64,000 nt of DNA. It comes from Escherichia phage WG01. This document shows positions 31,531 through 55,649 of the stretch, piece after piece. Both the position numbers and the translations under genes were made by a program. Under the pieces are notes generated by a model. It saw only the letters and a program-made list of their open reading frames with translations. It made no database searches and was not told the DNA's origin. How positions within the stretch are numbered: position 1 is the stretch's first letter; every line of letters begins with the position of its first letter. The stretch lies in sequence record NC_031928.1; one strand, written 5' to 3'.

Positions 31531-31534
<4 letters not shown>

Positions 31535-32184: not shown

Positions 32185-32471
32185 TTGCACTTCTCCTCTT
32201 TTAGACCGGAACGATAATAACATAACATGGATTTCTGGTCTTGTACATATCTTTTTACGTCGTTCAACCAAATACGATGTTCTTGGGAATCTTCAAATGG
32301 CATTCCAACCCAGGCCTTACCGTCGATTACCTTAACCTGCCATTTAACATTATGTTCGGCGATAGGTTGTGGCCACGAAGGATGTAGTTGTTGCTTAGGC
32401 ACTACAGGGATGTCCTGGGCACATCCAACTAACAAGCCAATAGATAATACTACTACAGATAATTTAATCAT
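32181..32471 (-). CDS. o-spanin (outer-membrane lipoprotein), pseT.2 equivalent
   Basis: Signal peptide with lipobox LVGC; paired with upstream i-spanin. Confidence 0.8.
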   Translation of the reverse strand: MIKLSVVVLSIGLLVGCAQDIPVVPKQQLHPSWPQPIAEHNVKWQVKVIDGKAWVGMPFEDSQEHRIWLNDVKRYVQDQKSMLCYYRSGLKEEKCK

Positions 32472-33309: not shown

Positions 33310-33339
33310 TTTGTTTTCTCCTCATTAGTTGGTAAGTCT

Positions 33340-33368
33340 ATACTAACACGTCATGAGGAGATGTAAAC
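33340..33368 (-). promoter_or_regulatory. T4-type early promoter for alc
   Basis: Minus GTTTAC, 17 nt, TAGTAT, conserved leader CTAATGAGGAGAAAA. Confidence 0.5.
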
Positions 33369-34516: not shown

Positions 34517-34926
34517 TGCTTTATCCTATGTTGGGTATTCCAAGGTGGATTAAATTTCTTTATGAACATTGGCTCTTCAAGAGACATGGTCTCAACTGAC
34601 ATAGTTCCAAGTTCGTTAGTCATCGACAGATTAAAGCACTGCCGTGCATAGAACTCTACCTTTTTACCTGCCATTAATGCTTCATGAATCAGAATGGACT
34701 TGGTCGAATCTGACGTTTGGTCCTTACGATTAATAGCGGTTCGGTAGTAGTTGATGCGCTTACGAAGATTTTTAGTCTTCCCGATGTAGACTAGTATATC
34801 ATCAACCGCTATAGCATATATGACATTTTGTTTATTTGGTACTGTGAGTGGAGCAATGCTGGCGTCATCTTGGAGTTCTAGGGTGACGTACTTGATAAAG
34901 CTAAATTCGTCTGCGATTTCTTTCAT
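34513..34926 (-). CDS. denA: Endonuclease II (GIY-YIG family)
   Basis: VIYAIAVDDILVYIGKT GIY-YIG-like motif; start placed at MKEIADEF (track ORF to 34950 includes a hairpin). Confidence 0.75.
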   Translation of the reverse strand: MKEIADEFSFIKYVTLELQDDASIAPLTVPNKQNVIYAIAVDDILVYIGKTKNLRKRINYYRTAINRKDQTSDSTKSILIHEALMAGKKVEFYARQCFNLSMTNELGTMSVETMSLEEPMFIKKFNPPWNTQHRIKQ

Positions 34927-34930
34927 AGCA

Positions 34931-34947
34931 ATAAGGGGCCGAAGCCC
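34931..34947 (-). terminator. UUCG hairpin between nrdB and denA
   Basis: GGGGC-UUCG-GCCCC immediately downstream of nrdB stop. Confidence 0.45.
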
Positions 34948-34953
34948 CATTCC

Positions 34954-36162: not shown

Positions 36163-36185
36163 GAGCCAATTATAATCAGATTTTA

Positions 36186-38441: not shown

Positions 38442-38471
38442 AATTTCCTCAATATGTTAGGTTCTATAATT

Positions 38472-38498
38472 ATTCTATCATAGAACCTGTTAAGCATG
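38472..38498 (-). promoter_or_regulatory. MotA-dependent middle promoter for nrdA
   Basis: Minus ATGCTTAA (MotA box, 1 mismatch), 12 nt, TAGAAT, SD GAGGAAAT. Confidence 0.5.
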
Positions 38499-38862
38499 GA
38501 CTGATATTTATAGGTCTTCTAATGAGAACGTGTCTTTGAAAAGTTTGTTAACAACCAGGGCTATCATATCCCCATGACAGTCCTTAGGTTTACAGGTACA
38601 CGCTATACGCATACCTCTAAGGGTTTCAAGATGTTCTCTTTTAATTTCGCCCGATTTTATTTTAGCAATAAAGTATTCTTTAAAGTTCTTGATGTTTTCC
38701 TCGCGGGTTCCATCTTTAAATGGATTACCCCACATAGTTCCACGTTGGATATTGACATCAAAGTCTTCTTTATACTTGTTAACAACTCTGCAAACTCTCA
38801 TTATAGCACCAAATTCAGCCCAACCATAATAACCAAAAACAGAGTACAGATTATTTGAATTT

Positions 38863-40548
<1,686 letters not shown>

Positions 40549-40573
40549 TTTATTCTCCTTAGTTGATAAGGCT

Positions 40574-40603
40574 ATAGTATCACTACCATAGCCTGGTGTA
40601 AAC
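40574..40603 (-). promoter_or_regulatory. T4-type early promoter cassette
   Basis: Minus GTTTAC, 18 nt, TACTAT, leader CTTATCAACTAAGGAGAA. Confidence 0.5.
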
Positions 40604-40831
40604 TTATTTTTGAATTAGGCCCATATAAAATTTAGCGTCTTCCGGGTGCATACCGTCACAATACTCGTCAGCCATAAAGCGGGTAAGGTCTTCAAGAGGA
40701 CCTTGGACTTCAATTTGCATACTACAGAATTGAGTATCTTTAATATGGGTCATAACTAAAGAAGGATAACGATTACGGATAACTTCGTAAGTGTATTCAA
40801 AATCAACGATATCAATATTAACCTTAGCCAT
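40604..40831 (-). CDS. Hypothetical protein (75 aa from MAKVNIDIV)
   Basis: Second ATG chosen because the first lies inside the conserved promoter leader. Confidence 0.5.
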
Positions 40832-40863
40832 TTTATTTTCCTCACTCATTAGTTGATAGGTCT

Positions 40864-40892
40864 ATAGTATCATGTTTAAAGGCGTTGTAAAC
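40864..40892 (-). promoter_or_regulatory. T4-type early promoter cassette
   Basis: Minus GTTTAC, 17 nt, TACTAT, leader AGACCTATCAACTAATGAGTGAGGAAAA. Confidence 0.55.
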
Positions 40893-40894
40893 AT

Positions 40895-41155
40895 TTATTT
40901 TTGAATTTTATCAAGCCATTTACCAAGTTTAATCATTTCTTTGGTAGCTTTTTCCATACTTCTAAATTTAACCAGTAAAGGTTGGGCATCAACACCCATA
41001 ACTAAGGTGGTTACAAGACTATGTTCACCTACAAGCCATAATGAATAAGTTTGGATATCGAGCCCGTAATTTCGGTCTTTATGAACTCGTACACCCATCA
41101 CTTCAAATTTCTCACTGGCTTTTTCTACTGCATCCAGGAAATCATCTTTAGTCAT
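40895..41155 (-). CDS. Hypothetical protein (86 aa from MTKDDFLDAV)
   Basis: Internal ATG avoids 62-nt overlap with upstream gene. Confidence 0.45.
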   Translation of the reverse strand: MTKDDFLDAVEKASEKFEVMGVRVHKDRNYGLDIQTYSLWLVGEHSLVTTLVMGVDAQPLLVKFRSMEKATKEMIKLGKWLDKIQK

Positions 41156-41156
41156 A

Positions 41157-41546
41157 TTAGGCCTTAAAAGTTTTTTGCAAAAGTTCAATGATTTGGTCAA
41201 CGTTCTGTTCGGTGACAATGCAATGGATTTGAGTCACACCGGCCTTAGCAATAGGCTCATCGATTTCTTTATCTTCCACAACATATTCACAGAAGCAATA
41301 GAACTCATCTTCATGCAACTCAAAATAATTTGGCACCAACCCAAATGCATTATAAATCTCGCCATTTGCACATTCGATTTCAGTCACAAATTTGTCGCCA
41401 TCCATAGTCAACATATCCTTTACTTCAAACCAACCTCCGTTGTCTTGGATAAGGTCGACCATGCTTTTATTATTTTCATATTCGTCCATTTCAATAAAGT
41501 CTTTAATGCATTCAGGACGAAGTTCATAAGTTTTACCGATTTCCAT
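41157..41546 (-). CDS. Hypothetical acidic protein (129 aa)
   Basis: ATG at 41546 with SD GAGGAAAT; early promoter upstream. Confidence 0.55.
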   Translation of the reverse strand: MEIGKTYELRPECIKDFIEMDEYENNKSMVDLIQDNGGWFEVKDMLTMDGDKFVTEIECANGEIYNAFGLVPNYFELHEDEFYCFCEYVVEDKEIDEPIAKAGVTQIHCIVTEQNVDQIIELLQKTFKA

Positions 41547-41577
41547 TTTATTTCCTCATCTATTAGTTGATAGGTCT

Positions 41578-41606
41578 ATAGTATCACGTTTAAAGGCGTT
41601 GTAAAC
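41578..41606 (-). promoter_or_regulatory. T4-type early promoter cassette
   Basis: Minus GTTTAC, 17 nt, TACTAT; near-identical to the copy at 40864..40892. Confidence 0.55.
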
Positions 41607-41622
41607 CATTAAATGCCAAAAA

Positions 41623-41642
41623 GGGAAGACCGAAGTCTTCCC
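41623..41642 (-). terminator. Rho-independent terminator downstream of gene 32
   Basis: GGGAAGAC-UUCG-GUCUUCCC followed by UUUUU on minus strand. Confidence 0.65.
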
Positions 41643-41658
41643 ATTATAAATCAATAAC

Positions 41659-42564
41659 TTATAGACCAGCTAACAGGTCGTCCAGACCATCGTCATCAGA
41701 AGGACTTACTGACGGCTCAGGAGTAGTGGAACGAGTCGGTGTAGATGGTTTAGAATCATATGCATCAAGGTCTGCACTGAATGCGTCCAGGTCATCACCA
41801 ATCTTATCAGCGGCTGCAGAAGCTTTAGCGGCAGCACCACCAAGAGCAGCTGTACCAACAACTTTCTTAAACTTGGCTTCGTTAGTTTCGAATGATTTGA
41901 AATCGAGCAGTTTAGAAAGGTCGTGCATTTCTTCCATCAATTTAGCTTGGTAAGCTTCATCATTGATGTTAGGAATTTCAGACTGACCCATGAATTTGGA
42001 ATCGTCATAGTTCTTGAAGTCGCCAACTTTCTTAGATTTCAGTACGAAGTTCGCACCATCAAACGGACATGTTACGTCAACCGGCACTTCACCAATATCG
42101 GTATCAACTTCAACCATCTGGTTGATTTTATCCATAATTTTCTGACCGAAACGGAATTTAAACACTTTACCTTCGTTAGCAGGCACTGCACTATCCTTAA
42201 TAACAAGGATGTTAGCCCAGAAGGAAGTTTTACGTTTCATCAGTTTGTATTCGGCATTATTAGTATTAAAGGTATCATTCTGGTTCATGTATTTACATAC
42301 AGGACATGAATCGAAATCACCGTGTGTAGACGTACAGTTTTCAATGTACCATTGACCATTTTTCTTAAAGCCGTGGTTAACGAGCTTAATGAATGGAGAT
42401 GGATTTTCTTCGTTTTTCGAAGGTAGGAAACGAATTACCGCAGTACCAACGCCATTGTCATCTTTCAATTTCCATTCAGCTTTATCATCGGAAGAGAAAG
42501 AAGAACCACCTTTCATTGCAGACAGTTGAGCAGCCAGTTGGGAAGGGTCTTTACGTTTAAACAT
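41659..42564 (-). CDS. 32: gp32 single-stranded DNA-binding protein
   Basis: 301 aa; [14 protein letters not shown]...[34 protein letters not shown] matches remembered T4 gp32; acidic C-terminus. Confidence 0.95.
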
Positions 42565-42628
42565 ATTATTTACCTTAGCAGATTTAGCAGTTATATTTTA
42601 TTAACAGTTTTTAACAGATTGAGTTAGT

Positions 42629-42655
42629 ATATTAACACAGTTGGTTTGAAGCATT
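42629..42655 (-). promoter_or_regulatory. MotA-dependent middle promoter for gene 32, with AU-rich leader
   Basis: Minus AATGCTTCA (MotA box), 12 nt, TAATAT; about 55-nt AU-rich leader. Confidence 0.5.
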
Positions 42656-43307
42656 AAAACTTACAAGATTTGATAGTTTCAATGAACAATTTACGAGCTT
42701 CTAAATTATCGATTATAAGAATTTTCTTATAAGCATTTAATTTAGTCGAATACTTAGACCACACTAAATCGTTGGTCTGTTCATCATGTTTATCAATTAT
42801 ATCCATAAATGAATCAAGCAAAATAAACGTTTCGAATGAAATAACATTCGATTGAAGGAGCTTAAAAATATAGCTCGAGTTAACTTTTTTATTATAATCA
42901 AAAATTTCAGAAAGCGCTTTAACTTCCACTTTCTTACTGAAATAATAGATGTTTTTGATATCGTCCTCAAAAACTTGTTTTATTCTTTTAAGTCTACCGA
43001 TATATTCTCGGTAAAAGACTAAGGCGTCGGCATCACTGATGTCGCCAATCCATGCGTCTTGGTTAGCCACCAAGTTACTCATGAAAATAAGAGCAAGCTC
43101 TTTCAAAGTGTATTTATCACTCAATTTCTCAAAGAAATATTTGTCACGACGTTTTTGATAAGCCGTATCAGAGATTCGCATGACCCAGTTATATTTTATA
43201 ACGTCGTATTTGGCATTGAAGTGATGTTTGAGCATTAAGTATAGTGAATATACGCTCTTACCATTCACCATACGGTTATTGTTTGGTGGCATGCGAATCT
43301 TAATCAT
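42654..43307 (-). CDS. 59: gp59 helicase loader
   Basis: 217 aa; KYDVIKYNWVMRISDTAYQKRRDKYFFEKL closely matches remembered T4 gp59. Confidence 0.95.
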   Translation of the reverse strand: MIKIRMPPNNNRMVNGKSVYSLYLMLKHHFNAKYDVIKYNWVMRISDTAYQKRRDKYFFEKLSDKYTLKELALIFMSNLVANQDAWIGDISDADALVFYREYIGRLKRIKQVFEDDIKNIYYFSKKVEVKALSEIFDYNKKVNSSYIFKLLQSNVISFETFILLDSFMDIIDKHDEQTNDLVWSKYSTKLNAYKKILIIDNLEARKLFIETIKSCKF

Positions 43308-43606
43308 AACAAGAAATCCAGAGTATTAGTTTTTTGCGTTCGAGCCATTGAAGGTCGAAGCAAGTTATCATCAATGGCTTCGTTCATAATTTTATCAATA
43401 ATTCCTGCAGGCAAATAACGAGCAAAGTTACCTTCAGGGATGCTATTCTCTTCCAACCATGCGGTAGCCGCTTCGAGGTAACTACAACCTTCAGCTTCAA
43501 CAAAGGCCTCAATATCAAGGCCATTCTGTTGTTTGTTTACTAATACATGGACAGGTTCGGAAGCGGTATTAACCGCTCCATCAAAATCATTCAAAGATTG
43601 TGTCAT
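43304..43606 (-). CDS. 33: gp33 late transcription co-activator
   Basis: 100 aa; position between dsbA and 59; C-terminal LDFLL. Confidence 0.8.
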   Translation of the reverse strand: MTQSLNDFDGAVNTASEPVHVLVNKQQNGLDIEAFVEAEGCSYLEAATAWLEENSIPEGNFARYLPAGIIDKIMNEAIDDNLLRPSMARTQKTNTLDFLL

Positions 43607-43856
43607 ACAGTTCTACCACTTCAGTTTTTTCGTCTTCGAAACGTTCACGAGTGCCTTTATGGTACAGGGAGAACAGTTGGTTAAACATTTTACCGTCTAC
43701 ACCAAGTTCAGTCTTAGCACGGTCTTTGATATCTTTAATTTCGTCACCGTAAGCTTCCATTTTTAATTTAGTATCAGAAGCCGACTTAATCAGTTGTGCC
43801 AATGTGTTACCATGTTCTTCTTGATTGAATTCAACTTTCACTTTTTCTTTAGCCAT
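43587..43856 (-). CDS. dsbA: DsbA double-stranded DNA-binding protein
   Basis: 89 aa from MAKEKVKV (track start is GTG); SD AAGGTGAA. Confidence 0.8.
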   Translation of the reverse strand: MAKEKVKVEFNQEEHGNTLAQLIKSASDTKLKMEAYGDEIKDIKDRAKTELGVDGKMFNQLFSLYHKGTRERFEDEKTEVVELYDTIFE

Positions 43857-43866
43857 TATATTCACC

Positions 43867-44814
43867 TTAATAAAAATCAGCTACTGTAGCAGTTAGTTTA
43901 GACAAACCAGATTTAACGAAATAAGGATAAACTTTAGATTTCGAAGGTTTGTTATACGTATTATATCTTTCAGTAATTAAAGCAACAATATCATCTGGAA
44001 TAAAGTCCATATCAATTAAGATTTGGTTTTCACAGAAACGTTCATATTGTTCTTCAGTAAGAAGTGTTTTAATTATATCATGGTCGTAATAATTCAGAGC
44101 AATTGCTTCAAGTTCCTTGGCACGAGTGCTAGGAGTACGTTCGCCTTCAACCATCGTCAACCAGTAATCACCACGAACTTTAATACTCGCGACGTTATCT
44201 TTACGGTCACCTTTAACAACCTTAGTCACGCAATCAAGCAATGAATCGCCAGATTTTGTTTTGACGAATTTTTTCTGCATTGGAGACCATTGTTTTACCC
44301 CAGGGAATTTATGGAGCTGGGTAAAGTCACCATCCGAAGAACCGATCATAACAGGATGGCCTAAAGCCGTGAGGATTCGGGTTAAAACAGCAATATGGTC
44401 ATCAGCTTCGATTGTATCGATATTCATAACAATATAAGGCATGTTTTGTTCCAGTTCATCAACAATAATATGCATTGCTGTGAATAAACCTTCCCAATCA
44501 AATGGTGATTCGTCACGTGCCTTAGCACGGTTTTTCTTATAATAAGGTGAATAGCGACGACGCCAATAACCTGATTTAGAGTTATCAACACAAATAACCA
44601 GTTGGTTGTACCCCTGTTTTTTAAAGTCTTTAATATTTTTCTTAATTGAATTCAACACGAGGTGTCGAAGCATTGCTGTAGTTACTTTAGGAAATCCAGC
44701 ATTCTCACCAAACTCTTGGAAAGCTGCAGCCATAATGATTTGGCTGAAATCTAGGAGTAAAAATCCATCTTTTTGTTGGTCTTCTTCAGGAAGTAAAAAA
44801 TCTAAATCGTTCAT
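43867..44814 (-). CDS. rnh: RNase H (5'-3' exonuclease / flap endonuclease)
   Basis: Start at MNDLDFLL; motifs ICVDNSKSGYWRR, EADDHIAVL, SSDGDFTQL match remembered T4 RNase H. Confidence 0.92.
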   Translation of the reverse strand: MNDLDFLLPEEDQQKDGFLLLDFSQIIMAAAFQEFGENAGFPKVTTAMLRHLVLNSIKKNIKDFKKQGYNQLVICVDNSKSGYWRRRYSPYYKKNRAKARDESPFDWEGLFTAMHIIVDELEQNMPYIVMNIDTIEADDHIAVLTRILTALGHPVMIGSSDGDFTQLHKFPGVKQWSPMQKKFVKTKSGDSLLDCVTKVVKGDRKDNVASIKVRGDYWLTMVEGERTPSTRAKELEAIALNYYDHDIIKTLLTEEQYERFCENQILIDMDFIPDDIVALITERYNTYNKPSKSKVYPYFVKSGLSKLTATVADFY

Positions 44815-44881
44815 ATGAACCTCTGTCCAATTAGTGTAGAGGTTCATTATATCACGACCCTAGAAGAAGTAAACACTTTGC

Positions 44882-44889
44882 TATAAATA
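44882..44889 (+). promoter_or_regulatory. T4 late promoter TATAAATA for gene 34
   Basis: Exact TATAAATA 33 nt upstream of gp34 ATG. Confidence 0.6.
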
Positions 44890-44921
44890 GTTCTATACCC
44901 TGAAAACGAAAAGGAAATAAA

Positions 44922-47900
44922 ATGGCCGATATTTTAAAACCTGCCTTCCGTGCTACATCCGGACTCGATGCTGCAGGCGAGAAAGTTATCAATGTTGCCA
45001 AAGCCGATTACAATGTATTAGACGACGGCGTCAACGTTGAATTCTTTATAGATGAGAACACCATCCAGGCGTACGACGAGACGCGCGGATATAAGAAAGG
45101 GTTTGCCGTAATCCATGACCAACGTATCTGGGTTGCTCAACGTGATATCGATGCTCCAGCAGGAACCTTTGTACCGGGTTATTGGACTGCAACTCGTACT
45201 GACCCTAAATGGATTACCGTAGCATCTCCTACACGCCAGCTGGCTTCCGGTGAATATATTGCTGTGGATTCTGCTGCTAGCTTTACTACATTTACCCTGC
45301 CTCCGAACCCTACTGATGGTGATACCATCGTAATCAAGGATATTGGTGGCCGTGTAGGTTATAATGAAATTAAGCTCCAGTCTAGTTCTGCTCCAGGTGG
45401 TGGTAATCAGAAAATTGTCCGTTTCGGTAACCAGTTCACTGAGACCTTAATTACGAAGCCTTTTTCCTATAATATGATTATCTTTGCCAACCGTTTATGG
45501 CATTTCTGGGAAGCAGCTAATGAAGAACGTGGTATTCGTGTAGAACCGAACACCGCCCAGTTCCAATCACAAGCGGGTGATAACGTTTTACGTCGTTATA
45601 CTTCAGGTGCAGTAATTAAGTTTACTCTTCCTAAGTATGCGAACCAAGGTGATATTATTAAAACCGTTGATATCGATGGTTTAGGAAGTAAATTCCACTT
45701 AATCGTTGAAACATTTGATGCGTCATCTTCATTAGGTAAGCCCGGCCAGCATAGCATGGAATTCCGTACTTCAGGTGATGGATTCTTTGTTTATAACTCT
45801 ACCGAAAAATTATGGTATGTTTGGGACGGCGACCGACAAACTCGTTTACGTGTAATTCGTGACGATGTTGAACTCTTGGCTAACGAAAGTGTTATTGTTT
45901 TTGGTCCTAATAACACGACACCCCAGACAATTAATATCACATTACCTACCGGTGTGGCCCAGGGTGATGTCGTTAAGATTGCTCTGAACTATCTCCGTAA
46001 AGCTCAGACGGTAAATATTAAGGCTGCCGTAGGAGATAAGATTGCTTCATCCGTCCAGTTGCTTCAATTCCCTAAACGTTCAGAATATCCGCCAGAAACC
46101 GAATGGGTATTGAATGACGTACTGACCTTTAATGGCAATATAAGTTATACTCCGGTTATTGAACTGAGTTATATCGAAGACACCACTACAGGTGGCAAAT
46201 ATTGGGTTGTTGCCCAGAACGTTCCTACTATAGAACGTGTGGATTCTAAAGATGATTTAACTCGTGCTCGTTTAGGTGTTATTGCCCTTGCGTCCCAGAC
46301 TCAAGCAAACGTCGACCATGAAAATAATCCTGAAAAAGAACTGGCAATTACTCCGCAGACTTTAGCTAATCGTGTAGCGACTGAATCTCGTCGTGGTATT
46401 GCTCGTATTGCTACTACTGCTCAAGTGAACCAGGACACAACCTTCGCATTCCAGGACGATTTGATTATTTCTCCTAAGAAATTAAACGAACGTACTGCAA
46501 CCGAAACACGTCGTGGTGTTGCTGAAATTGCTACGCAAGTTGAAACCAATGCTGGTACAGATGATACTACAATCATCACTCCTAAGAAGCTACAAGCACG
46601 CCAGGGTTCGGAAAGTCTTTCAGGTATTGTAACATATACCTCTACTGTAGGAACCACTCCTGCGACTGCTAGGGACACCGTAGGTACTAACGTTTATAAT
46701 AAGAACGTAGGCAATTTGGTTATTTCTCCTAAAGCTCTTGACCAGTATAAAGCTACCCAAGTTCAACAGGGTACGGTATATCTTTCTAACCAATCTGAAG
46801 TTAACGCAGGTCAAACTGCAAGTGGATTTGCCAACAGTGCTGTTTCTCCTGAAACATTACATGCTCGTGTGGCTCTTGATACTCGTACAGGGTTAATTGA
46901 AATTGCTACGCAACAGGAAACTGATACTGGAACAGATTATACTCGTGCAGTAACGCCTAAAACGTTAAATGATAGGAAAGCTACGGAAGGATTGACTGGT
47001 ATTGCTAGAATTGCAACACAGGTAGAATTTGATGCTGGTACGTTAGATAATGTTATTTCAACTCCGTTGAAAGTTAAAACAAGATTTAATGATACTGCTA
47101 GAACTTCTGTCTCAGCAGCCAGTGGTTTGGTTGAATCAGGAACCTTATGGAACCATTATACACTAGATATTAGAGAAGCAAATGAGACTCAACGTGGTAC
47201 TGCTCGCCTGGCAACCCAGACCGAAGTCAACGTTGGTACCGATGATAAAACTATCATCACTCCTTTGAAATTGCATTCTAAAAAATCTACTGAAAGTTCT
47301 GAAGGTATTATTCGTGTTGCAACGAATACCGAAACAACTGCAGGAACTTCTAAAGTTCTGGCTGTAAGCCCTTCTGGTTTAAAATATGTAGTACAAACCG
47401 AAACCACTTGGGAAGCTACTGCACTTCGTCGTGGATTTGTTAAACTAACCGAAGGTGCTTTAACCCATTCAGGAAATAAAGTTACTGGTTCTGGTGTTAA
47501 ATTTAACTCAGGTACAGGCCTTTACGAGAACGATGATACTGTTCTGAATGCAGCGAACTATCCTAAAACAGGTTATGCTGTTTCATCTTACGAGATGAAT
47601 AAAACTTTACAGAACTTTTTACCTATAAATGCTACGGCTGTGAACTCCGAGAAATTGGATGGCCTAGATTCACTTCAGTTCATTCGTAGAGACGTTGACC
47701 AAACGGTTAATGGTTCTTTAACGTTGACAAAACAATTGAACCTGGCAGCTCCTCTAGTGTCTTCTAGTACTGCTAATATTACCGGCAATACTATTTTAGG
47801 TTCTCTGGAAGTAACCGGAAATTCTACTTTTAAAAATGATGTATCTGTTAGCTCAGGTAAATCTATTAAATTTGTAGGCCCTCAGTCAGGCGCTGGTACT

Positions 47901-48971
47901 TGGAACTCTCAAGGTGATACTTTAGCTCCGATTTTTGCCGAGATAAATTCGACCCCAGATGCCAAGTTCCATCCTATTGTTAAACAACGTTTAGGGCAAG
48001 GTACGTTCTCTTTAGGCACTGTAAATGATGGAACTCGTGATTTTAAAATACATTATCTTCCATCGCCGGGTTCTTTAGAATCTTTCTACTGGACCTTTAA
48101 TACGACTGGTGACTTTGCTGTTAATAGTGGTTCCATTAGTATTTCTAAGAATGCTAATATCACAGGTATAACCACTTCTAACGGTGTTTCTACAACTACA
48201 TTAAATGCTTCTGCTCTGTCTTCATTACAAAACGTAACTACTTCAGGTACTATCGTTTCCACCGGACAGGTATCGGCAAATAATGGTTTGGTTGCTCAAA
48301 AATACGTCCGCTCTGTTGGTGTTAAACCTACATTAGCATCGCAGGCCCCTACTGCAGAAACAGTTGGCTTCTGGTCTGTCGATATCAATGATTCGGCTAC
48401 ATTTAACCTATTCCCAGGTTATTGGACGATGAAAACTAAACGTCAGGTTAATATTGATACGGTCCAAACTAAACCTGCCGGTGTTTCTGATGAGATATGG
48501 AATGCTTCTGGTTGGTTGACAGAAACGGGTGCATTTAGTTCTCCGGCTATTCGTTATCGTAACGAAGACGGTAGTTTTGGTGACGAAGTTCTCAGTACGA
48601 CGGGTCAGAAATTACGTGGTACTTGGTTTGATTATTCTGTTCGTGATAAGGAAGTTAAATATCCTGGTACGTTAACTCAGTTTGGTAATACATTGGATTC
48701 ATGTTATCAGGATTGGGTGTGCTATCCTACAGGACCGAATGGTGGTACTATTCGTTATACACGTACCTGGCAGAAAAATAAAAACGCATGGACTACGTTC
48801 TCTATGGTCTATACGGCAGATAACCCTCCTTCTGCGGAAGAGGTTGGTGCATTGCCTGCTGATAACGCTACAATGGGTAACATTACAATCCTTGATTGGT
48901 TACGTATTGGTAACGTTCGTATTATTCCTGACCCGGTCACTAAATCCGTTAAGTTTGAGTGGATTGAATAA
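44922..48971 (+). CDS. 34: Long tail fibre proximal subunit gp34
   Basis: 1349 aa; N-terminus and internal repeats (ETRRG(I/V)A.IAT...PK.L) typical of gp34. Confidence 0.92.
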   Translation: MADILKPAFRATSGLDAAGEKVINVAKADYNVLDDGVNVEFFIDENTIQAYDETRGYKKGFAVIHDQRIWVAQRDIDAPAGTFVPGYWTATRTDPKWITVASPTRQLASGEYIAVDSAASFTTFTLPPNPTDGDTIVIKDIGGRVGYNEIKLQSSSAPGGGNQKIVRFGNQFTETLITKPFSYNMIIFANRLWHFWEAANEERGIRVEPNTAQFQSQAGDNVLRRYTSGAVIKFTLPKYANQGDIIKTVDIDGLGSKFHLIVETFDASSSLGKPGQHSMEFRTSGDGFFVYNSTEKLWYVWDGDRQTRLRVIRDDVELLANESVIVFGPNNTTPQTINITLPTGVAQGDVVKIALNYLRKAQTVNIKAAVGDKIASSVQLLQFPKRSEYPPETEWVLNDVLTFNGNISYTPVIELSYIEDTTTGGKYWVVAQNVPTIERVDSKDDLTRARLGVIALASQTQANVDHENNPEKELAITPQTLANRVATESRRGIARIATTAQVNQDTTFAFQDDLIISPKKLNERTATETRRGVAEIATQVETNAGTDDTTIITPKKLQARQGSESLSGIVTYTSTVGTTPATARDTVGTNVYNKNVGNLVISPKALDQYKATQVQQGTVYLSNQSEVNAGQTASGFANSAVSPETLHARVALDTRTGLIEIATQQETDTGTDYTRAVTPKTLNDRKATEGLTGIARIATQVEFDAGTLDNVISTPLKVKTRFNDTARTSVSAASGLVESGTLWNHYTLDIREANETQRGTARLATQTEVNVGTDDKTIITPLKLHSKKSTESSEGIIRVATNTETTAGTSKVLAVSPSGLKYVVQTETTWEATALRRGFVKLTEGALTHSGNKVTGSGVKFNSGTGLYENDDTVLNAANYPKTGYAVSSYEMNKTLQNFLPINATAVNSEKLDGLDSLQFIRRDVDQTVNGSLTLTKQLNLAAPLVSSSTANITGNTILGSLEVTGNSTFKNDVSVSSGKSIKFVGPQSGAGTWNSQGDTLAPIFAEINSTPDAKFHPIVKQRLGQGTFSLGTVNDGTRDFKIHYLPSPGSLESFYWTFNTTGDFAVNSGSISISKNANITGITTSNGVSTTTLNASALSSLQNVTTSGTIVSTGQVSANNGLVAQKYVRSVGVKPTLASQAPTAETVGFWSVDINDSATFNLFPGYWTMKTKRQVNIDTVQTKPAGVSDEIWNASGWLTETGAFSSPAIRYRNEDGSFGDEVLSTTGQKLRGTWFDYSVRDKEVKYPGTLTQFGNTLDSCYQDWVCYPTGPNGGTIRYTRTWQKNKNAWTTFSMVYTADNPPSAEEVGALPADNATMGNITILDWLRIGNVRIIPDPVTKSVKFEWIE

Positions 48972-48979
48972 GAGGTATT

Positions 48980-50101
48980 ATGGAAAGATTTATGGCAGAA
49001 TTTGGACAAGGATATGTCCAGGTTCCTACATTATCTGAAAACAATGCTGTAAGGTATAAACTTAGTATAGCGGGTAGTTGTACTAAGTCTACCACAAAAG
49101 CATATGTTAAATTTCAAGATGGGAACTTCGGTTCCCAGAATTTTCAAAATGGATTAAACCTTATAGAAATTGATGTTAGTGCTGAACCTAAAATAGTGGC
49201 TAACAAAACTTATAGTTTTACAAAAGATTTTGATGTTATTTCTGAAGCTTTTATAACGTATATAAATTCTATACCGGCCAATAGAATAGTTTGTTTAGTA
49301 TCTTCTGGTAGATTAAATGCTTCACAAAAACTTATCGATTGGTTCCGTGCAGCAGGAAGTACCGCATTCCCGTCTAAATGGTTGATAGACCGGTTTGAGC
49401 CGTCTTATTCTGCATTTTATGTTTCAGGAAGGAATGCTATAGTAATGGAACATGTGCTTTATAATGATGGGGTATTGGTCGAAGATGTTTCTACTCCATT
49501 AGAAGTGGTATTTGATGATATCAGTGATGTCGGTGGTACAGGATATCCTGTCAGAATTGTTGAAGACGAAAGCACTTATCTAAGCAATGATGGAGATGAA
49601 ATTAAGCGATTTCCTACCGAATCTCCTACCACCCCATTAACAGATTATAACATGAAGCCAGGTGAATTCTTTTACCTTAAGTTTCAATTAATGCGCGACC
49701 AAGCTTTAAAAGACGTAGGGACTTCTCAGATGTCTGTTAGATTTTTTAATGCCTCAGGTGCTTTAACTGGGACAGTTAATATGGACGTTCCTTCCAACGT
49801 TCCTGCTGGCGCATGGATGACATTTGAACGGGTAGTAATGGTTCCTGAAGGTACTACAGACTTTACTCTTTATGCCAGAAAAACAGCTTCGGCTGGCCAA
49901 GGCGGAGTTCGAAATGTTATGTTCGGTGAGATATCTGAATCAGAACCTCAGCCAAAACCTGCTGAATTTGGTGTTAACGGTATTCGTATGAACTTTGGTA
50001 CGGAAACTAAAAATATGGGTACTACCATAGCCCAGCTATATGATAAAACAGGCACTAAACCTGGTCAGGTTTGGGTCGCTGAATTTAGAGAAAAATATTA
50101 A
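48980..50101 (+). CDS. 35: Long tail fibre hinge protein gp35
   Basis: 373 aa (T4 gp35 372 aa); position. Confidence 0.85.
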   Translation: MERFMAEFGQGYVQVPTLSENNAVRYKLSIAGSCTKSTTKAYVKFQDGNFGSQNFQNGLNLIEIDVSAEPKIVANKTYSFTKDFDVISEAFITYINSIPANRIVCLVSSGRLNASQKLIDWFRAAGSTAFPSKWLIDRFEPSYSAFYVSGRNAIVMEHVLYNDGVLVEDVSTPLEVVFDDISDVGGTGYPVRIVEDESTYLSNDGDEIKRFPTESPTTPLTDYNMKPGEFFYLKFQLMRDQALKDVGTSQMSVRFFNASGALTGTVNMDVPSNVPAGAWMTFERVVMVPEGTTDFTLYARKTASAGQGGVRNVMFGEISESEPQPKPAEFGVNGIRMNFGTETKNMGTTIAQLYDKTGTKPGQVWVAEFREKY

Positions 50102-50127
50102 GGAACCTTCGGGTTCCTTTTTCGTTT
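50102..50127 (+). terminator. Rho-independent terminator after gene 35
   Basis: GGAACC-UUCG-GGUUCC followed by UUUUUCGUUUU. Confidence 0.65.
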
Positions 50128-50135
50128 TCTACGGC

Positions 50136-50143
50136 CATAAATA
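50136..50143 (+). promoter_or_regulatory. Late-promoter-like CATAAATA upstream of gene 36
   Basis: 7/8 match to TATAAATA, 34 nt upstream of gp36 ATG. Confidence 0.35.
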
Positions 50144-50176
50144 TATAAAAGGCTATAACTCCCAAAGGAAACTCAA

Positions 50177-50824
50177 ATGGCAGATTTAAAATTAGGTTCT
50201 ACAGCAGGAGGTTCAGTATTATGGCACCAAGGTAATTTTCCCTTAACGCCTGTATCAAATGACCTTCTTTACAAAACATATAAAGTTTATACCGAATATA
50301 ATAAACCGCAAGCCACTGATAACGACTTTGTTTCAAAAGCAAATGGTGGTAATTATAAGAATAACGTGTATTTTGAAAAAGGGCTGACCTTTAATGATAC
50401 TAATGGATACGGTATTAAATTAGGAACAAGAACTGGTGGAGCACCGTTCACGGCTTCTTTCCGTATTAAAGGCGCTTTTGGATATGAAACGGAAGATGGT
50501 ACTCCGTTCATGATATTCAACCCAAGTACAGTAGTAGGTGCTAAACGCCTCACAGTAATGGGTGATTCATTATTCAGACAAGTATATGACGAATCAGGTC
50601 GTGTATTCAGTCCAGGCAACACCCCTACTAAAGCTCAAGTAGGATTATCGTTAGTAGATAACGCAAAACAGGTCCAAATAAATAATACTAACATGCAAAC
50701 AATGACCGGGGTACTTGCTGCTCCTAACTTTATTTCGCTGAATCCGGCCTCTGACGCAGGACACGTTCCTCGTTTTGACCAGATTGTTATTAAAGATTCT
50801 ATTCAAGATTTTGGTTATTATTAA
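50177..50824 (+). CDS. 36: Long tail fibre proximal connector gp36
   Basis: 215 aa (T4 gp36 221 aa); position. Confidence 0.85.
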   Translation: MADLKLGSTAGGSVLWHQGNFPLTPVSNDLLYKTYKVYTEYNKPQATDNDFVSKANGGNYKNNVYFEKGLTFNDTNGYGIKLGTRTGGAPFTASFRIKGAFGYETEDGTPFMIFNPSTVVGAKRLTVMGDSLFRQVYDESGRVFSPGNTPTKAQVGLSLVDNAKQVQINNTNMQTMTGVLAAPNFISLNPASDAGHVPRFDQIVIKDSIQDFGYY

Positions 50825-50832
50825 GAGGCATT

Positions 50833-53800
50833 ATGGCTACTTTAAAGCAAATCCAATTTAAAAGAAGTAAAGTAGCCGGTGTACGTCCGGCACCGGCCCA
50901 GTTGGCTGAAGGCGAACTGGCTATTAACTTAAAGGACCGTTTACTTTTTACTAAAGACGATACTGGAGCGATTATCGACCTTGGCTTTGCTAAGGGTGGA
51001 AATATCGATGGTAATGTTATTCATAAAGGCAATTACAACCAAACCGGCGATTATACACTTAATGGTGTATTTACTCAAATTGGTGATTTCAATCTCAATG
51101 GTATTGCTCGTGTAACTCGTGACATTATTGCCGCTGGCCAGATAATGACCGAAGGCGGCGAGCTTATTTCTAAGAGCGCCTCAACTTCTCACCTTCGTTT
51201 CTTTGATGGTGATGATCGTGAACGTGGTATTATCTTTTCTCCAAATAATGCGGGTCTTACCAATCAAGTAGTTAATATTCGCGTCCAAGATTACGCTGCA
51301 GGAAGTGAAAGCACCTACGCGTTTTCAGGCAATGGTGTATTTTCTTCACCAGAAGTTTTTGGGTGGAAATCTGTATCAACTCCGGTAATTTATACCAATA
51401 AAGTTATTACTAATAAAAAGGTTAAAGGTGATTATGACATCTATTCGTTGGCTGACAACACTCCATTTGAAGAAGGCGAAACGGCTATTAACCACCTCCG
51501 TGTTATGCGAAATGCTGTAGGAGCAGGTATTTTCCACGAAGTTAATGTTAATGACGGAATAACCTGGTATTCCGGAGATGGCTTAGACACTTATCTTTGG
51601 TCGTTTAACTGGGCCGGTGGATTGAAAGCCGGTCATTCTATTTCTGTAGGTCTTCCAGGTGGTTCTAAAGGATATTCTGAATTAGGAACTGCATCAATTG
51701 CTCTTGGTGATAATGACACCGGGTTAAAATGGCACCAAGATGGTTATTTCTTTAGTGTAAACAACGGCACAAGAACTTTCCTGAGCGGCCCTGCAGAAAC
51801 CACCAGTCTTAGAAAAATGGTTATGGGTTATTCTGTAAACGGTACCGATTTAACCACTCCTCCGTCGGAAAACTATGCTTTGGCGACGGTTGTCACTTAT
51901 CATGATAATAACGCGTATGGCGACGGTCAAACTCTTTTAGGTTATTATCAAGGTGGCAATTATCACCACTATTTCCGTGGTAAAGGTACTACAAACGTTA
52001 ACACCGCTGGTGGTTTGTTAGTTACTCCGGGTAATATTGATGTTGTTGGCGGTTCGGTTAATATTGATGGCCGCAACAATGCTTCTACACTAATGTTCAG
52101 AGGAAATACTACAGGAAGTAGTTCAGTTGATAATATGACTATCGCCGTTTGGGGTAATACCTTTACTAATGTTGATGGTGACCGTAAAAACGTAATGGAA
52201 ATATCTGATGCCACTAGTTGGATGTGGTATATTCAGCGCAAAACCGATGACAAAGTTGAAGCCCATTTAAACGGTGCCTTACGTGTAAATGGAAGCATCG
52301 ACGTCGGCAGAGAAGTTAACGTCTCCGGCACTATTGCTGGTAATGCGGTCAATGCTCTTAGAATTTGGAACGACGACTACGGTGCCATTTTCCGCCGTTC
52401 GGAAGGAAGTCTTCATATTATTCCTACCGCCTTTGGCGAAGGTAAAACTGGTGATATCGGACCACTTCGTCCATTTAGTTTGGCATTAGATACTGGTAAG
52501 GTTGTTATTCCTGACCTGGATTTGAGTCATACAACTTTTGCTGAAAATGGTTTTATTAAATTTGGCGGTCATGGTGCAGGTGCAGGTGGTTATGATATTC
52601 AATATGCACAAGCAGCTCCTATTTTCCAAGAAATTGATGATGACGCAGTAAGTAAATATTATCCTATTGTTAAGCAGAAATTCTTACAAGGAAAAGCTGT
52701 TTGGTCTTTAGGTACTGAAATTAATTCCGGGACTTTTGTTTTGCATCATTACAAAGAAGACGGGACCCAAGGTCATACATCAAGATTTAATGCTGATGGT
52801 ACAGTTAATTTCCCGGATAACGTACAGGTCGGTGGTGGTGAAGCTACTATTGCTAGAAATGGTAATATTTTCTCTGATATTTGGAACGGATTTAATGGTG
52901 CAGGTAATATAACTAACATTCGCGATGCCATTGCTACTCGTGTTTCTAAAGAAGGTGACACGATGACAGGCCGCTTAACTCTTAAAACCAACTCAGATGC
53001 CGTGGTTATTGATTATCCAGCAGATGAAGCAGGTTATGTTAAGGGTAAAAAAGGTGGTGTTGATAACTGGTATGTAGGTAATGGTGGTGCTGATAATGGT
53101 TTAGCCTTCTGGAGCTTCCAATCCCAAGGCGGTATTAATATTAACCCGAATGGTGAGGTTATTCTATCTCCACAGGGCACTAGTATATTCAGTATAAACC
53201 GCGACCGCATCTATATGAACGGTGCCCACTGGGTTGCGCGTAAATCTGGTGCGTGGGGCGACCAATGGGGTTTAGAAGCACCTTATTTCCTTGAGTTTGG
53301 TAGCGTGGGTGAAGACAGTTATTATCCCATTATTAAAGGCCGATCTGTAATTAGTGGTCAGGGTTATACTACTTCTGTTGAATTAGGCATGCGTCGTACT
53401 CCACAACAATGGGGACAAGCTATAATTCGTGTTGGCAACGCTGAACGTGGCGACGGTCCCGTAGGTATTTTCGAATTCCACTCTAGTGGTAGATTTTACT
53501 CCCCGTCTTCAGTCCAGACCCCTTCAATTTCTGTCAATACTGATAATGGATTGGGCGCTTCTAGTATTGCTATTGGTGATAACGACACAGGTTTAGTCCA
53601 TGGTGGTGACGGCCGAATTAATATGTATGCCAATAGTATGCATATTGCAAGCTGGGGAGCCGGTTACCATATCCATGAAGGTCTTTGGGATACCACTGGT
53701 GCCTTGTGGACTGAAACAGGAAGAGCTATTATTTCTTTTGGTCATTTAGTCCAACAAAACGATAGCTATTCAACATTTGTTCGTGACGTTTATGTTCGTT

Positions 53801-54135
53801 CTGATATTCGTGTTAAAAAAGACCTTGTTAAATTTGAAAATGCTTCACAGACACTTTCAAAAATTAACGGTTACACTTATATGCAGAAACGTGGCCTGGA
53901 TGAAGAAGGTAATCAGAAATGGGAACCTAATGCCGGTTTAATTGCTCAAGAAGTTCAAGCTATTTTACCTGAATTGGTTGAAGGCGACCCTGACGGTGAA
54001 GCTTTACTTCGTTTAAACTATAACGGTGTAATTGGTTTAAATACAGCTGCAATCAATGAGCACACTGCAGAAATAGCAGAATTGAAATCAGAGATTGAAG
54101 AACTTAAAGCACTAATTAAATCATTGTTAAAATAA
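50833..54135 (+). CDS. 37: Long tail fibre distal subunit gp37 with C-terminal intramolecular chaperone-like domain
   Basis: 1100 aa; C-terminal ~110 aa (SDIRVKKDL...[15 protein letters not shown]...coiled coil) resembles the S74/endosialidase-chaperone fold. Confidence 0.88.
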
Positions 54136-54139
54136 TAAG

Positions 54140-54155
54140 AGGGGCTTAGGCCCCT
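54140..54155 (+). terminator. Hairpin between genes 37 and 38
   Basis: GGGGC-UUAG-GCCCC immediately followed by SD GGAGG for gp38. Confidence 0.4.
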
Positions 54156-54166
54156 TGGAGGTTTAT

Positions 54167-54964
54167 ATGGCAGTTGGAGGACCGTGGGTAGGATCGTCTG
54201 CAGTAGCTAATACAGGACAAAATTGGATGGGCGGCGCCGCTCAACGATTGAGAATGGGTATTCCGTTTTGGATGAGTAATATGAACGGTCGGTCTGTTGA
54301 AGTAATTCACACCATAACAGCAAACCATAATTTTAATGGCCAGTGGTTCCGCGACCGCTGTTTTGAAGCAGGCAGCGCACCTATTGTGTTTAATATCACA
54401 GGCGATATAGTATCTTACGACCGTAATGTTCCATTGTTCTTTATGAATGCCGACACACCTAATGAATATGTCAATTTGACTATTCATGGAGGCGTGCATA
54501 TGTGGGGCCGAGGCGGCCACGGTGGGTGGACCCATTCAGGTGGCGACGGTAACGGTCAATGGGGCGGTGATTGTATAGTCAACCATATAGGTCATAGACT
54601 ACGTATTTGGAACTATGGGGTTATCTGTGGCGGTGGCGGTGGTGGTGGTGGCATTGCGTATCGTCCTCACTCAGGTGCTAACTGGCAAGATATCGGTGGT
54701 GGTGGTGGACGTCCATTTGGTCCTGGTGGCGGTGGTGGATACTCCGGTGGTGGTGCTTCTTATGAAAGCCCTGGCGGTGGATACGATTATGGTAATGCCC
54801 ACTCAGGTCGTGGCGGTGATGCTGGCGGCGCTGGCGGCAACGCATGGAATGATGGTGGTAAAGTTCTTAAAGTTGGGGCTGGGGGCGGTTCTGGGGCTGC
54901 TGTTGCCGTTTCTGCTCCTGCATGGGGCGCGACAGGTACGATTTACGGTCCTTGGCTTAGTTAA
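54167..54964 (+). CDS. 38: gp38 tail-fibre tip adhesin, T2-type with glycine-rich motifs
   Basis: Start [13 protein letters not shown]; [25 protein letters not shown]; several poly-Gly tracts (GGGGGGGG, GGGGG) separated by variable segments. Confidence 0.85.
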
Positions 54965-54969
54965 GAATT

Positions 54970-54977
54970 TATAAATA
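54970..54977 (+). promoter_or_regulatory. T4 late promoter TATAAATA for holin gene t
   Basis: Exact TATAAATA 19 nt upstream of t ATG. Confidence 0.6.
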
Positions 54978-54995
54978 TCTTTAAAGGAGAAAAGT

Positions 54996-55649
54996 ATGGA
55001 ACCAAAAGTAGGAATATCATTATCAGACCTACTTTTTGGACTTCTTGATAGAATTTTTAAAGATACTTCTTCCGGGAAAGTAGTTTTTTCCCGGGTCCTA
55101 GTCGTGATATTATTGTTCTTTATGGCATTGGTTTGGTATAAAGGCGAGTATATTCTAAACTTTTATAAAGAGACTACTTATGCCTCTTATACTGAAATGA
55201 TTAGACAAGACCAGGACAATAGATTTAAAATTGCGGCTATCGAGCAGCTCCGAATAGTGCATTCTTCTTCAGGCGCAGACTTCACAGCAATATATTCTTT
55301 TAGACCAACCAACATGAATTATTTTGTGGATATGGTGGCTTACGAGGGTAAATTACCGGAAACGGTAGACGCAAAAAATACGGGAGGGTTTCCAATTGAC
55401 AAAACGTCAGTAGAATATATGGCGGGAGTTAACGGGAACTATTTTGAATCAAGTACCGAAACTGTATTCCTTCCTACAAAGAAGAAAACACAATTCACGT
55501 ATATGTTTTCATGCCCGTTTTTTAATTTGGATAACGTCTACGCCGGCTCGATATCGTTGTACTGGTATGATATCAAACCGGATTTAGGATTTCCTAGACT
55601 TTCGTCTATGTGCGGTCAGGCTGGGAGGACATTAGGTCGAACACGTTAG
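54996..55649 (+). CDS. t: Holin T
   Basis: 217 aa; DLLFGLLDRIFKDTSSGKVVFSRVLVVILLFFMALVWYKG and YSFRPTNMNYFVDMVAYEGKLP match remembered T4 holin; single N-terminal TMD. Confidence 0.93.
   Translation: MEPKVGISLSDLLFGLLDRIFKDTSSGKVVFSRVLVVILLFFMALVWYKGEYILNFYKETTYASYTEMIRQDQDNRFKIAAIEQLRIVHSSSGADFTAIYSFRPTNMNYFVDMVAYEGKLPETVDAKNTGGFPIDKTSVEYMAGVNGNYFESSTETVFLPTKKKTQFTYMFSCPFFNLDNVYAGSISLYWYDIKPDLGFPRLSSMCGQAGRTLGRTR

Follow-up and report, generated by a model that had tools for sequence, protein, structure and literature searches.

The gene 37-gene 38 locus

The window analysed here, a 64,000-nucleotide stretch of DNA, belongs to a Dhakavirus, a T-even-like coliphage, and carries the distal long tail fibre genes in the order gp35-gp36-gp37-gp38-t, an order also found in QL01, T2 and S16. 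Gene 38 lies directly downstream of gene 37 and upstream of the holin gene t. The genes and the signals between them are:

50833..54135, + strand: gene 37, long tail fibre distal subunit precursor, 1100 aa (open reading frame; PHROG 1699)
54140..54155, + strand: intercistronic RNA hairpin AGGGGC-UUAG-GCCCCU, between the gp37 stop codon and the gp38 ribosome-binding site (RNA fold)
54158..54162, + strand: Shine-Dalgarno sequence GGAGG for gene 38, 4 nt upstream of the ATG at 54167 (read from the sequence)
54167..54964, + strand: gene 38, T2/S16-type tail-fibre tip adhesin, 265 aa (Pfam and PDB matches)
54970..54977, + strand: TATAAATA, a match to the consensus of T4 late promoters, upstream of gene t (pattern search)
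54996-55649: holin gene t (Pfam Phage_holin_T, 222.5 bits)

RNA folding of positions 54120-54180 yields -17.8 kcal/mol with a z value of -1.96. A hairpin occupies the same position in KIT01, T2, JS98 and S16, with different, compensating stems and mostly UNCG loops across the set. The stem and the Shine-Dalgarno sequence seen here are the same in FB, QL01 and KIT01, the loop being TTAG in FB and QL01 and TTCG in KIT01. The hairpin was also considered as an intrinsic terminator. The terminator scan flagged the minus strand only and the coding strand lacks a U-tract, and the element is therefore treated as an intercistronic RNA hairpin. An upstream in-frame TTG at 54155 was rejected as the gp38 start, because the ATG at 54167 has the GGAGG and all homologues, as well as Pfam Gp38_N, start at MAV. 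The octamer at 54970..54977 is presumably a late promoter, by analogy with those of T4.

The gp37 shaft and its C-terminal chaperone domain

Over its full length gp37 matches PHROG 1699, 'long tail fiber protein distal subunit', with 1293.6 bits. Within the shaft Pfam detects a Gp34_trimer match, and a gp37_trimer match that stays below threshold (18.5 bits versus a cut-off of 21.7). The body of the protein is a patchwork whose segments are 99-100% identical to different Dhakavirus phages, and near-perfect identity to QL01 begins at the second GDNDTG motif (aa 915, nt 53575). The features from this motif to the stop codon are:

53575..53799, + strand: distal tip of the predicted mature form, beginning at the second GDNDTG motif and ending with Arg989, where gp38 is predicted to dock (aligned with S16 gp37 chain 6F45_A)
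53800..54135, + strand: C-terminal intramolecular chaperone domain (Peptidase_S74), 111 aa plus stop (Pfam PF13884)
53800..53817, + strand: predicted autocleavage site and catalytic dyad, Ser990 (53800-53802) to Lys995 (53815-53817) (alignment to the S16 site)
54019..54129, + strand: C-terminal long helix/coiled coil of the chaperone domain, aa 1063-1099 (AlphaFold model)

Over its last 211 aa, gp37 matches chain 6F45_A, which is S16 gp37, with an E value of 1.3e-45, and the approximately 85 aa that precede the chaperone domain align with the beta-helix tip of that chain. The preliminary description had likened the last ~110 aa of gp37 to the chaperone domain of endosialidase-type tail fibres, with a conserved Ser as the cleavage position and a coiled coil at the end, and the domain, its conserved Ser and a long terminal helix are borne out, with cleavage at the Ser as a prediction. 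The C-terminus of gp37 is a Peptidase_S74 intramolecular chaperone domain. PF13884 matches aa 990-1049 with 45.4 bits against a gathering cut-off of 22 (E 1e-11, profile positions 1-57 of 58), and the segment from Ser990 to the end of the protein comprises 111 of the 1100 residues, located at the extreme C-terminus directly after the fibre/beta-helix passenger.

A word-indexed search with the domain returned 23 short proteins, all 23 of which carry PF13884, and these served as the basis for both a homologue profile and a shallow AlphaFold alignment. The profile search retrieved the S16 gp37 chain (2e-41), the ICA domain of MyRF (7dc3, 2.5e-7) and 8jov (1e-4). The GA-1 chaperone fragment 3gud, a chain that starts at the aligned Ser, was retrieved with an E value of 0.09, which alone is not significant. 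The AlphaFold model describes a 126-aa fragment as a monomer, whereas the real domain is an intertwined trimer, and its confidence is no more than moderate (pLDDT 67), 23 homologues being too few for a better one. The Foldseek ranks 1-9 for this model are all S74-type chaperone structures, including 7dc3, 3gud and 3gw6; the best, 7dc3, has an E value of 2.8e-5 and a probability of 1.00, with TM values of 0.34-0.46 over the top ranks. The model places a single long helix at fragment residues 89-125 (pLDDT 66-93 over the block, highest in the last 25 residues), which would correspond to the coiled-coil tail.

The predicted autocleavage site

Ser990 is found at the N-terminal edge of the S74 domain in the motif RSDIRVK, with Lys995 five residues further on. 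The gp37 sequence VYVR^SDIRVKK aligns with DLNVS^SDRRIKK of S16 gp37, at which a passage of PMC7917993, citing Dunne 2018, places the S16 autocleavage. The scissile bond is preceded by Arg in the present gp37 and by Ser in that of S16. Both the Ser and the Lys of the dyad are kept in every row of the homologue alignment in which the region is present. Among the structural relatives, the counterpart of Ser990 is an Ala in MyRF (chain 7dc3), and in GA-1 it is the first residue of chain 3gud. By analogy to S16, cleavage is expected between Arg989 and Ser990, and the chaperone most likely cuts itself off.

The gp38 adhesin

The 265-aa product of gene 38 is a T2/S16-type adhesin and not a T4-type chaperone. 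Pfam Gp38_N covers aa 1-39 (72.9 bits, cut-off 25, E 2e-20), and Pfam GP38 covers aa 45-264 over the entire profile (positions 1-218 of 218; 212.1 bits, cut-off 25, E 1.1e-62). The protein further matches PHROG 2056 (342.5 bits) and the PDB entries 9V85 (1.8e-58) and, over its full length, 6F45_D (2.5e-47). Only the first ~62 aa also match PHROG 1121 ('tail fiber adhesin', 181 positions). The domains and the longest glycine tracts are:

54167..54283, + strand: N-terminal attachment domain with Trp7, Trp20 and Trp35 (Pfam Gp38_N)
54527..54961, + strand: receptor-specificity domain, aa 121-265, glycine motifs alternating with hypervariable segments (seven-sequence alignment)
54629..54652, + strand: G8 run, aa 155-162, codons GGC GGT GGC GGT GGT GGT GGT GGC
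54695..54739, + strand: two G5 runs, aa 177-181 (54695-54709) and aa 187-191 (54725-54739), flanking RPFGP

Trp7, Trp20 and Trp35 align with the tryptophans of S16 gp38 in 6F45_D, which PMC6851490 describes as prongs that insert into pockets of gp37. The poly-Gly tracts and the GGT/GGC codon usage reported in the preliminary description are present as described: besides the G8 and the two G5 runs there are three further G3 runs, Gly accounts for 26% of gp38 and 37% of aa 105-265, and GGT or GGC encodes 57 of its 70 Gly residues. Alignment of seven gp38 sequences gives invariant Gly columns, among them GRGG, GGGGG(GGG), GGGGGRP-G-GG and G-GG--G, whereas in the stretches between the motifs identity drops to 41-54%. 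The G8 run aligns with S16 gp38 151-GGGGGGGG-158, which is polyglycine-II (PGII) helix 3.

The gp38 variant was detected by megablast in only 17 phage records. Where a genus is stated, it is mostly Dhakavirus or Gaprivervirus, and poultry or avian-pathogenic E. coli is the source of several of the phages. In UPEC07 and several other records the gp38 homologue is labelled 'distal long tail fiber assembly catalyst', an annotation carried over from T4.

Assembly and receptor recognition

Taken together, the domain identities, the conserved Ser/Lys dyad, the docking tryptophans, the glycine motifs and the gene order make it very probable that the distal end of the long tail fibre is built in the T2/S16 way, with a chaperone tail on gp37 and a glycine-rich gp38 cap. 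By homology to these systems, gp37 would be made as a 1100-aa precursor whose last 111 residues trimerise via the C-terminal helix and template the folding of the preceding trimeric beta-helix. Ser990, activated by Lys995, would then attack the Arg989-Ser990 bond, so that the chaperone removes itself and uncovers the hydrophobic end of the trimer of mature, 989-aa gp37. One gp38 molecule would dock there (a 3:1 stoichiometry) via an N-terminal three-helix domain containing Trp7, Trp20 and Trp35. The glycine-rich motifs of the C-terminal part of gp38 presumably pack as a PGII sandwich from which the hypervariable loops project to bind an outer-membrane protein, most likely OmpA for the present variant. 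Confidence in this explanation as a whole is high; its cleavage, stoichiometry, PGII fold and receptor are transferred from homologues.

It is conceivable that the S74-like domain is instead retained, with full-length gp37 in the virion and gp38 acting only as an assembly factor, as in T4. The match of the N-terminal ~62 aa to PHROG 1121 does indicate a domain shared with a second gp38 family, the 'assembly catalyst' labels would fit such a role, and processing of gp37 in the present phage is a prediction from homology. Yet gp37 retains both residues of the dyad, in alignment with the site reported for S16, and a passage of PMC3157838, citing Drexler 1986, describes C-terminal proteolytic cleavage of T2 and T6 gp37 followed by gp38 capping. 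Moreover, the labels derive from T4, gp38 possesses a complete adhesin domain (Pfam GP38, 212 bits; 6F45_D over the full length) in addition to the docking tryptophans, and no T4-type C-terminal receptor-binding tip was found in gp37 after the beta-helix. Retention of the domain is thus highly improbable. Over aa 121-265, gp38 is 85% identical to GP213 of the Dhakavirus LHE83, which carries the same set of hypervariable segments, and 41-54% identical to other characterised adhesins. The attachment domain of GP213 is JS98-type, and over aa 1-44 the identity is only 59%. OmpA was mapped as the receptor of LHE83 (PMC10987938), and gp38 adhesins that are close relatives share their receptor (PMC12032242); the identity in the specificity domain therefore tentatively suggests OmpA as the most likely receptor here. 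For QL01, KIT01, FB and UPEC07, a literature search on receptors returned genome announcements only. With the architecture as described, there is a little less than an even chance that the receptor is one other than OmpA, namely OmpC, LamB, Tsx, OmpF, FadL or a structure specific to poultry strains, possibly together with a second receptor. About 22 of the 145 residues of the specificity domain differ from GP213, several of them in loops (at 199-201, 207, 215, 224, 228 and 248-258), and a passage of PMC12892980 reports that point changes in hypervariable segments can switch receptors. Furthermore, adsorption of LHE83 on BL21 ΔompA was reduced by only about 50% (PMC10987938), and the beta-helix region of gp38 shares 80% identity with its counterpart in PP01, which binds OmpC. 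Against this stand the LHE83 type of the hypervariable segments, compared with 41-54% identity to adhesins for OmpC, LamB, FadL/OmpF or uncharacterised receptors, and the general sharing of receptors among related gp38 variants. A further reading, in which gp38 binds a receptor or an OmpA loop allele unlike that of LHE83, for example a second receptor behind the OmpA-independent adsorption of LHE83, appears improbable; if true, a new specificity would be defined by the ~22 positions at which gp38 differs from LHE83.

The glycine-codon runs had also been proposed as natural recombination points for host-range switching, a proposal that stands in part. A passage of PMC3157838, citing Tétart 1996 and 1998, locates exchanges 'within or near' conserved motifs, and KIT01 differs mainly in one short gp38 patch (codons 210-224) with Gly motifs on both sides. 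The visible breakpoints, however, lie at cassette borders: sharp identity transitions among six relatives occur at gp37 ~53565-53600 (QL01), near gp38 codon 47 (PSD2002) and at the gp38/t junction, and none was found inside a Gly-codon run among the six. Among the 14 chimeras from the crosses of Trojet, none had recombined between GRM1 and GRM5. The core role of the motifs in a PGII sandwich would be enough to explain their conservation, and it is unlikely that the runs are mainly recombination hotspots that shuffle single hypervariable loops.

Comparison with known fibre tips

The tip architecture itself is already known. Published work (Drexler 1986; Tétart 1998; Trojet 2011; Dunne 2018) covers the processing of gp37 at its C-terminus, the capping by gp38, the glycine motifs with hypervariable loops and recombination near conserved motifs, and the observation made in the preliminary description is real and its reading essentially right, with nothing new in it. 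Its value is mainly that of a correct annotation: the phage uses the common T2/S16-type fibre tip, and exact coordinates are now assigned to the predicted cleavage site and to the adhesin specificity domain, which may serve host-range prediction and adhesin engineering. Such uses rest on an established framework, and an identical gp38 protein is already present in a deposited phage genome.

The closest relatives are other Dhakavirus phages. The gp38 protein is 100% identical to that of vB_EcoM_FB, 98.9% to QL01 and 98.5% to KIT01, and the chaperone domain is 98-100% identical to all three. In contrast, the gp37 shaft is a different mosaic, with overall identities of 84.6% (FB), 59.0% (QL01) and 78.2% (KIT01); the best gp37 match among the phages compared is PSD2002 (86.4%). 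Because of low-complexity filtering, tblastn with gp38 ended at aa 176, and identities over the Gly-rich part were computed in Python instead.

Phage S16 (PDB 6F45; Dunne et al. 2018) shares the gene order, an S74 chaperone on gp37 that is 55% identical, and the aligned cleavage site. Its gp38 likewise combines a three-Trp attachment domain, a beta-helix and a glycine-motif (PGII) domain with a G8 run. The two systems differ in the length of gp37 (1100 aa here versus 749 aa in S16, 28.5% identity overall) and in the hypervariable loops, which are unrelated although gp38 is 46% identical. The S16 receptor is Salmonella OmpC.

Phage T2 binds FadL and OmpF. Its gp37 undergoes C-terminal processing, after which a glycine-rich gp38 adhesin caps it (Drexler 1986; Riede/Henning). 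The T2 site motif VYIR^SDIRLK is nearly identical to VYVR^SDIRVKK here, whereas gp38 is 44.5% identical and the chaperone domain, shorter in T2 (99 aa), is only 31% identical. The more distant S74 structures, those of endosialidase (3GW6), GA-1 gp12 (3GUD) and MyRF (7DC3), share the Pfam family, the Ser...Lys(+5) dyad and the C-terminal place after a trimeric beta-helix, but their sequence identity to the gp37 domain is only 12-26%, and the passenger is a sialidase, an appendage or a transcription factor rather than a tail-fibre shaft.

T4 has the same locus and the same fibre scaffold (gp34-gp37). In the T4-type tip, receptor binding is a function of the end of gp37 itself, and gp38, a short non-structural chaperone, is released after assembly and has no part in host recognition. 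The present phage differs in having an S74 domain at the end of gp37 and a 265-aa adhesin as gp38, a tip of the T2/S16 type rather than the T4 type, as had been proposed.

Organization of the tail-fibre block

The T-even long-tail-fibre genes occupy window positions 48980-55649 on the + strand, as assigned by ORF, Pfam and PHROG analysis.

Genes of the long-tail-fibre block
48980-50101, +, gp35, proximal hinge connector
50177-50824, +, gp36
50833-54135, +, gp37, long tail fibre distal subunit precursor, 1100 aa
54167-54964, +, gp38, tail-fibre tip adhesin, 265 aa
54996-55649, +, t, holin

The region 53780-54964 takes in the final ~118 codons of gene 37, a 31-nt spacer and the whole of gene 38, and all strings quoted for it in the preliminary description are found in the window sequence. 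The gp38 start is the ATG at 54167, preceded by GGAGG at 54158-54162. An in-frame TTG at 54155, chosen by the ORF lister, was rejected because all homologues and Pfam Gp38_N begin at MAV.

The gp37 stop (TAATAA) is followed, ahead of the gp38 Shine-Dalgarno sequence, by a GC-rich hairpin, AGGGGC-UUAG-GCCCCU (54140-54155). At this position other genera have hairpins whose stems differ in a compensating way and whose loops are mostly of the UNCG type. The forms compared were GGGGC-UUCG-GCCCC (KIT01, UPEC07), AGAGGGC-UUCG-GCCCUCU (T2), AGGGCC-CUCG-GGCCCU (JS98) and GAGCC-UACG-GGCUC (S16); the window, QL01, FB and PSD2002 have UUAG instead of UNCG. The hairpin looks akin to the intercistronic C(UUCG)G hairpins classically described for T4 (Tuerk et al. 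1988) and could help to stabilise the mRNA or to adjust gp38 translation.

Elsewhere in the block, gp35 gives a marginal Pfam ILEI match ('Interleukin-like EMT inducer', aa 57-130, 28.4 bits; cut-off 27). The sequence TATAAATA at 54970-54977, 18 nt upstream of the t start codon and inside the 31-nt gp38-t spacer, fits the T4 late-promoter consensus and is a candidate promoter.

The gp37 C-terminal chaperone

The proposal that gp37 ends in an intramolecular chaperone is borne out by the HMM search, in which Pfam Peptidase_S74 ('Chaperone of endosialidase', PF13884) matches aa 990-1049 with 45.4 bits (gathering score 22). Over its last 211 aa, gp37 matches the S16 gp37 chain as deposited (6F45_A, 1.3e-45) and, weakly, the MyRF ICA domain, where the query Ser lies opposite an Ala of the crystallised chain, presumably a cleavage-dead mutant. 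When the database was searched with the final 126 aa, 23 proteins were obtained; PF13884 is present in every one of them, and the RSDxRxK motif is kept wherever the homologue alignment includes that region. The profile built from this alignment matched 6F45_A (2e-41), MyRF 7dc3 (2.5e-7) and tail-fibre protein 8jov (1e-4); the match to the phage GA-1 neck-appendage chaperone 3gud (E 0.09) is not significant alone, and the first residue of the 3gud chain is exactly the aligned Ser.

The AlphaFold model of the chaperone region rests on a shallow alignment and reaches moderate quality (pLDDT 67), with a confident C-terminal helix (aa 1063-1099). Foldseek places 7dc3, 3gud and 3gw6 at ranks 1-9 (best E 2.8e-5); these are the three S74-type chaperones whose structures have been solved. 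The TM-scores are modest (0.34-0.46), which is no surprise when an intertwined trimer is modelled as a monomer.

The window sequence FVRDVYVR^SDIRVKKD (^, cleavage point) aligns column for column with published gp37 cleavage sites (S16), and this alignment strongly argues for processing at Arg989/Ser990. The putative nucleophile Ser990 is encoded at 53800-53802 and Lys995, five residues downstream, at 53815-53817; the predicted products would be a 111-aa released fragment and a 989-aa mature gp37.

Among the homologues of 53755-54132 are also collagen-repeat (PF01391) tail-fibre proteins from E. coli, Shigella, Salmonella and Photorhabdus genomes that end in an S74 domain 42-48% identical to that of gp37. 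These are probably prophage fibres, and the domain would thus be common to them and to T-even fibres.

A T2/S16-type gp38 adhesin

Pfam Gp38_N (aa 1-39, 72.9 bits) and GP38 (aa 45-264, 212.1 bits, entire profile spanned) cover gp38, which matches the PP01 gp38 RBD (9V85, 1.8e-58) and, at full length, S16 gp38 (6F45_D, 2.5e-47). Its Trp7, Trp20 and Trp35 line up with the three tryptophans that S16 gp38 inserts into pockets of gp37 (PMC6851490). Glycine content is 37% over residues 105-265. GGT and GGC account for 57 of the 70 Gly codons, in agreement with the poly-Gly tracts first described; three G3 runs accompany the longer ones.

Longer glycine runs of gp38
54629-54652, +, G8, aa 155-162, GGC GGT GGC GGT GGT GGT GGT GGC
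G5, aa 177-181
G5, aa 187-191

In the alignment with S16, the counterpart of the G8 run is 151-GGGGGGGG-158, which forms polyglycine-II helix 3 of the 'polyglycine sandwich' (PMC6851490). Seven gp38 sequences (window, Bp7, LHE83, JS98, T2, S16, PP01) share invariant Gly motifs, with variable segments between them. The annotated Bp7 gp38 (NC_019500.1; 1659-2450 of the compared stretch) diverges completely from the others beyond ~aa 225 (...IITYLDLAVVLLVERYSEVSNVGRYRRYLWLLVIIRKY), a pattern more like a frameshift in the deposited sequence than a true variant.

The T4 arrangement is excluded, as the preliminary description had held, because gp37 has no receptor-binding tip beyond the beta-helix and the match of gp38 to PHROG 1121, another gp38 family (181 positions), is limited to the first ~62 aa of the protein.

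Mosaicism and recombination

The window comes from a Dhakavirus and, over positions 30000-50000, shows 98% identity to PSD9 and QL01. Protein identity of gp38 is 100% with vB_EcoM_FB, 98.9% with QL01 and 98.5% with KIT01, and the gp37 chaperone domain is 98-100% identical to those of the same three phages. At megablast level the gp38 specificity region is found in only 17 phage records, Dhakavirus or Gaprivervirus where the genus is given, several from poultry or avian-pathogenic E. coli. The gp37 shaft (50833-53600) is a mosaic of segments near-identical to different Dhakavirus phages, and the highest whole-gp37 protein identity among the phages compared is 86.4% (PSD2002). Such patchwork is known behaviour of T-even fibre genes.

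Nucleotide segments of gp37 and their relatives
~50977-51377, KIT01, 100% identity
51477-51677, JS98, 99-100%
52577-52777, FB and PSD2002, 96-100%
53077-53377, the six relatives compared, 39-71%
52950-53570 (slightly wider), CEV1 and JS10, ~89%
~53600 onward, QL01, 100%

The sharp identity transitions that could be resolved fall at the second (A/S)IA(L/I)GDNDTGL motif of gp37 (~53565-53600, against QL01), near gp38 codon 47 at the attachment domain/beta-helix border (against PSD2002), and at the gp38/t junction. gp37 has two copies of the motif, one at aa 292 (window 51706) and one at aa 915 (window 53575). The second copy starts a tip cassette common to QL01 and many other phages, and query position 65-68 is where most megablast matches to 53500-55000 start; the motif is a candidate conserved recombination motif.

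The Gly-codon runs had also been put forward as recombination points. The idea is already published, exchanges having been reported in or close to conserved motifs (Trojet et al., PMC3157838), and KIT01 gp38 has one small divergent patch (codons 210-224) with Gly motifs on both sides. However, no identity transition was resolved inside the gp38 Gly-codon runs among the six relatives, and in the crosses of Trojet et al. recombination between glycine-rich motifs GRM1 and GRM5 occurred in none of 14 chimeras. The window comparisons thus lend the proposal weak support.

Receptor and fibre-tip mechanism

Over the specificity domain (aa 121-265) gp38 is 85% identical to LHE83 GP213 and 41-54% identical to Bp7, JS98, T2, S16 and PP01. 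LHE83 resistance was traced to an ompA frameshift, and adsorption was ~50% lower on BL21 ΔompA and restored by complementation (PMC10987938). Closely related gp38 adhesins generally share a receptor (PMC12032242). Taken together, these points make OmpA our best guess for the receptor, held with not quite even confidence, and a second receptor is possible.

In the proposed mechanism, the gp37 trimer would fold with the help of the chaperone, which would cleave itself off at Ser990, the putative nucleophile; a single gp38 would cap the end so exposed, and its hypervariable loops on the polyglycine-II sandwich would bind an outer-membrane protein. Overall, the observation in the preliminary description is confirmed and its interpretation supported. 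The gp38 is not new, an identical protein having been deposited (vB_EcoM_FB), and the fibre-tip mechanism is already established for T2, T6 and S16.
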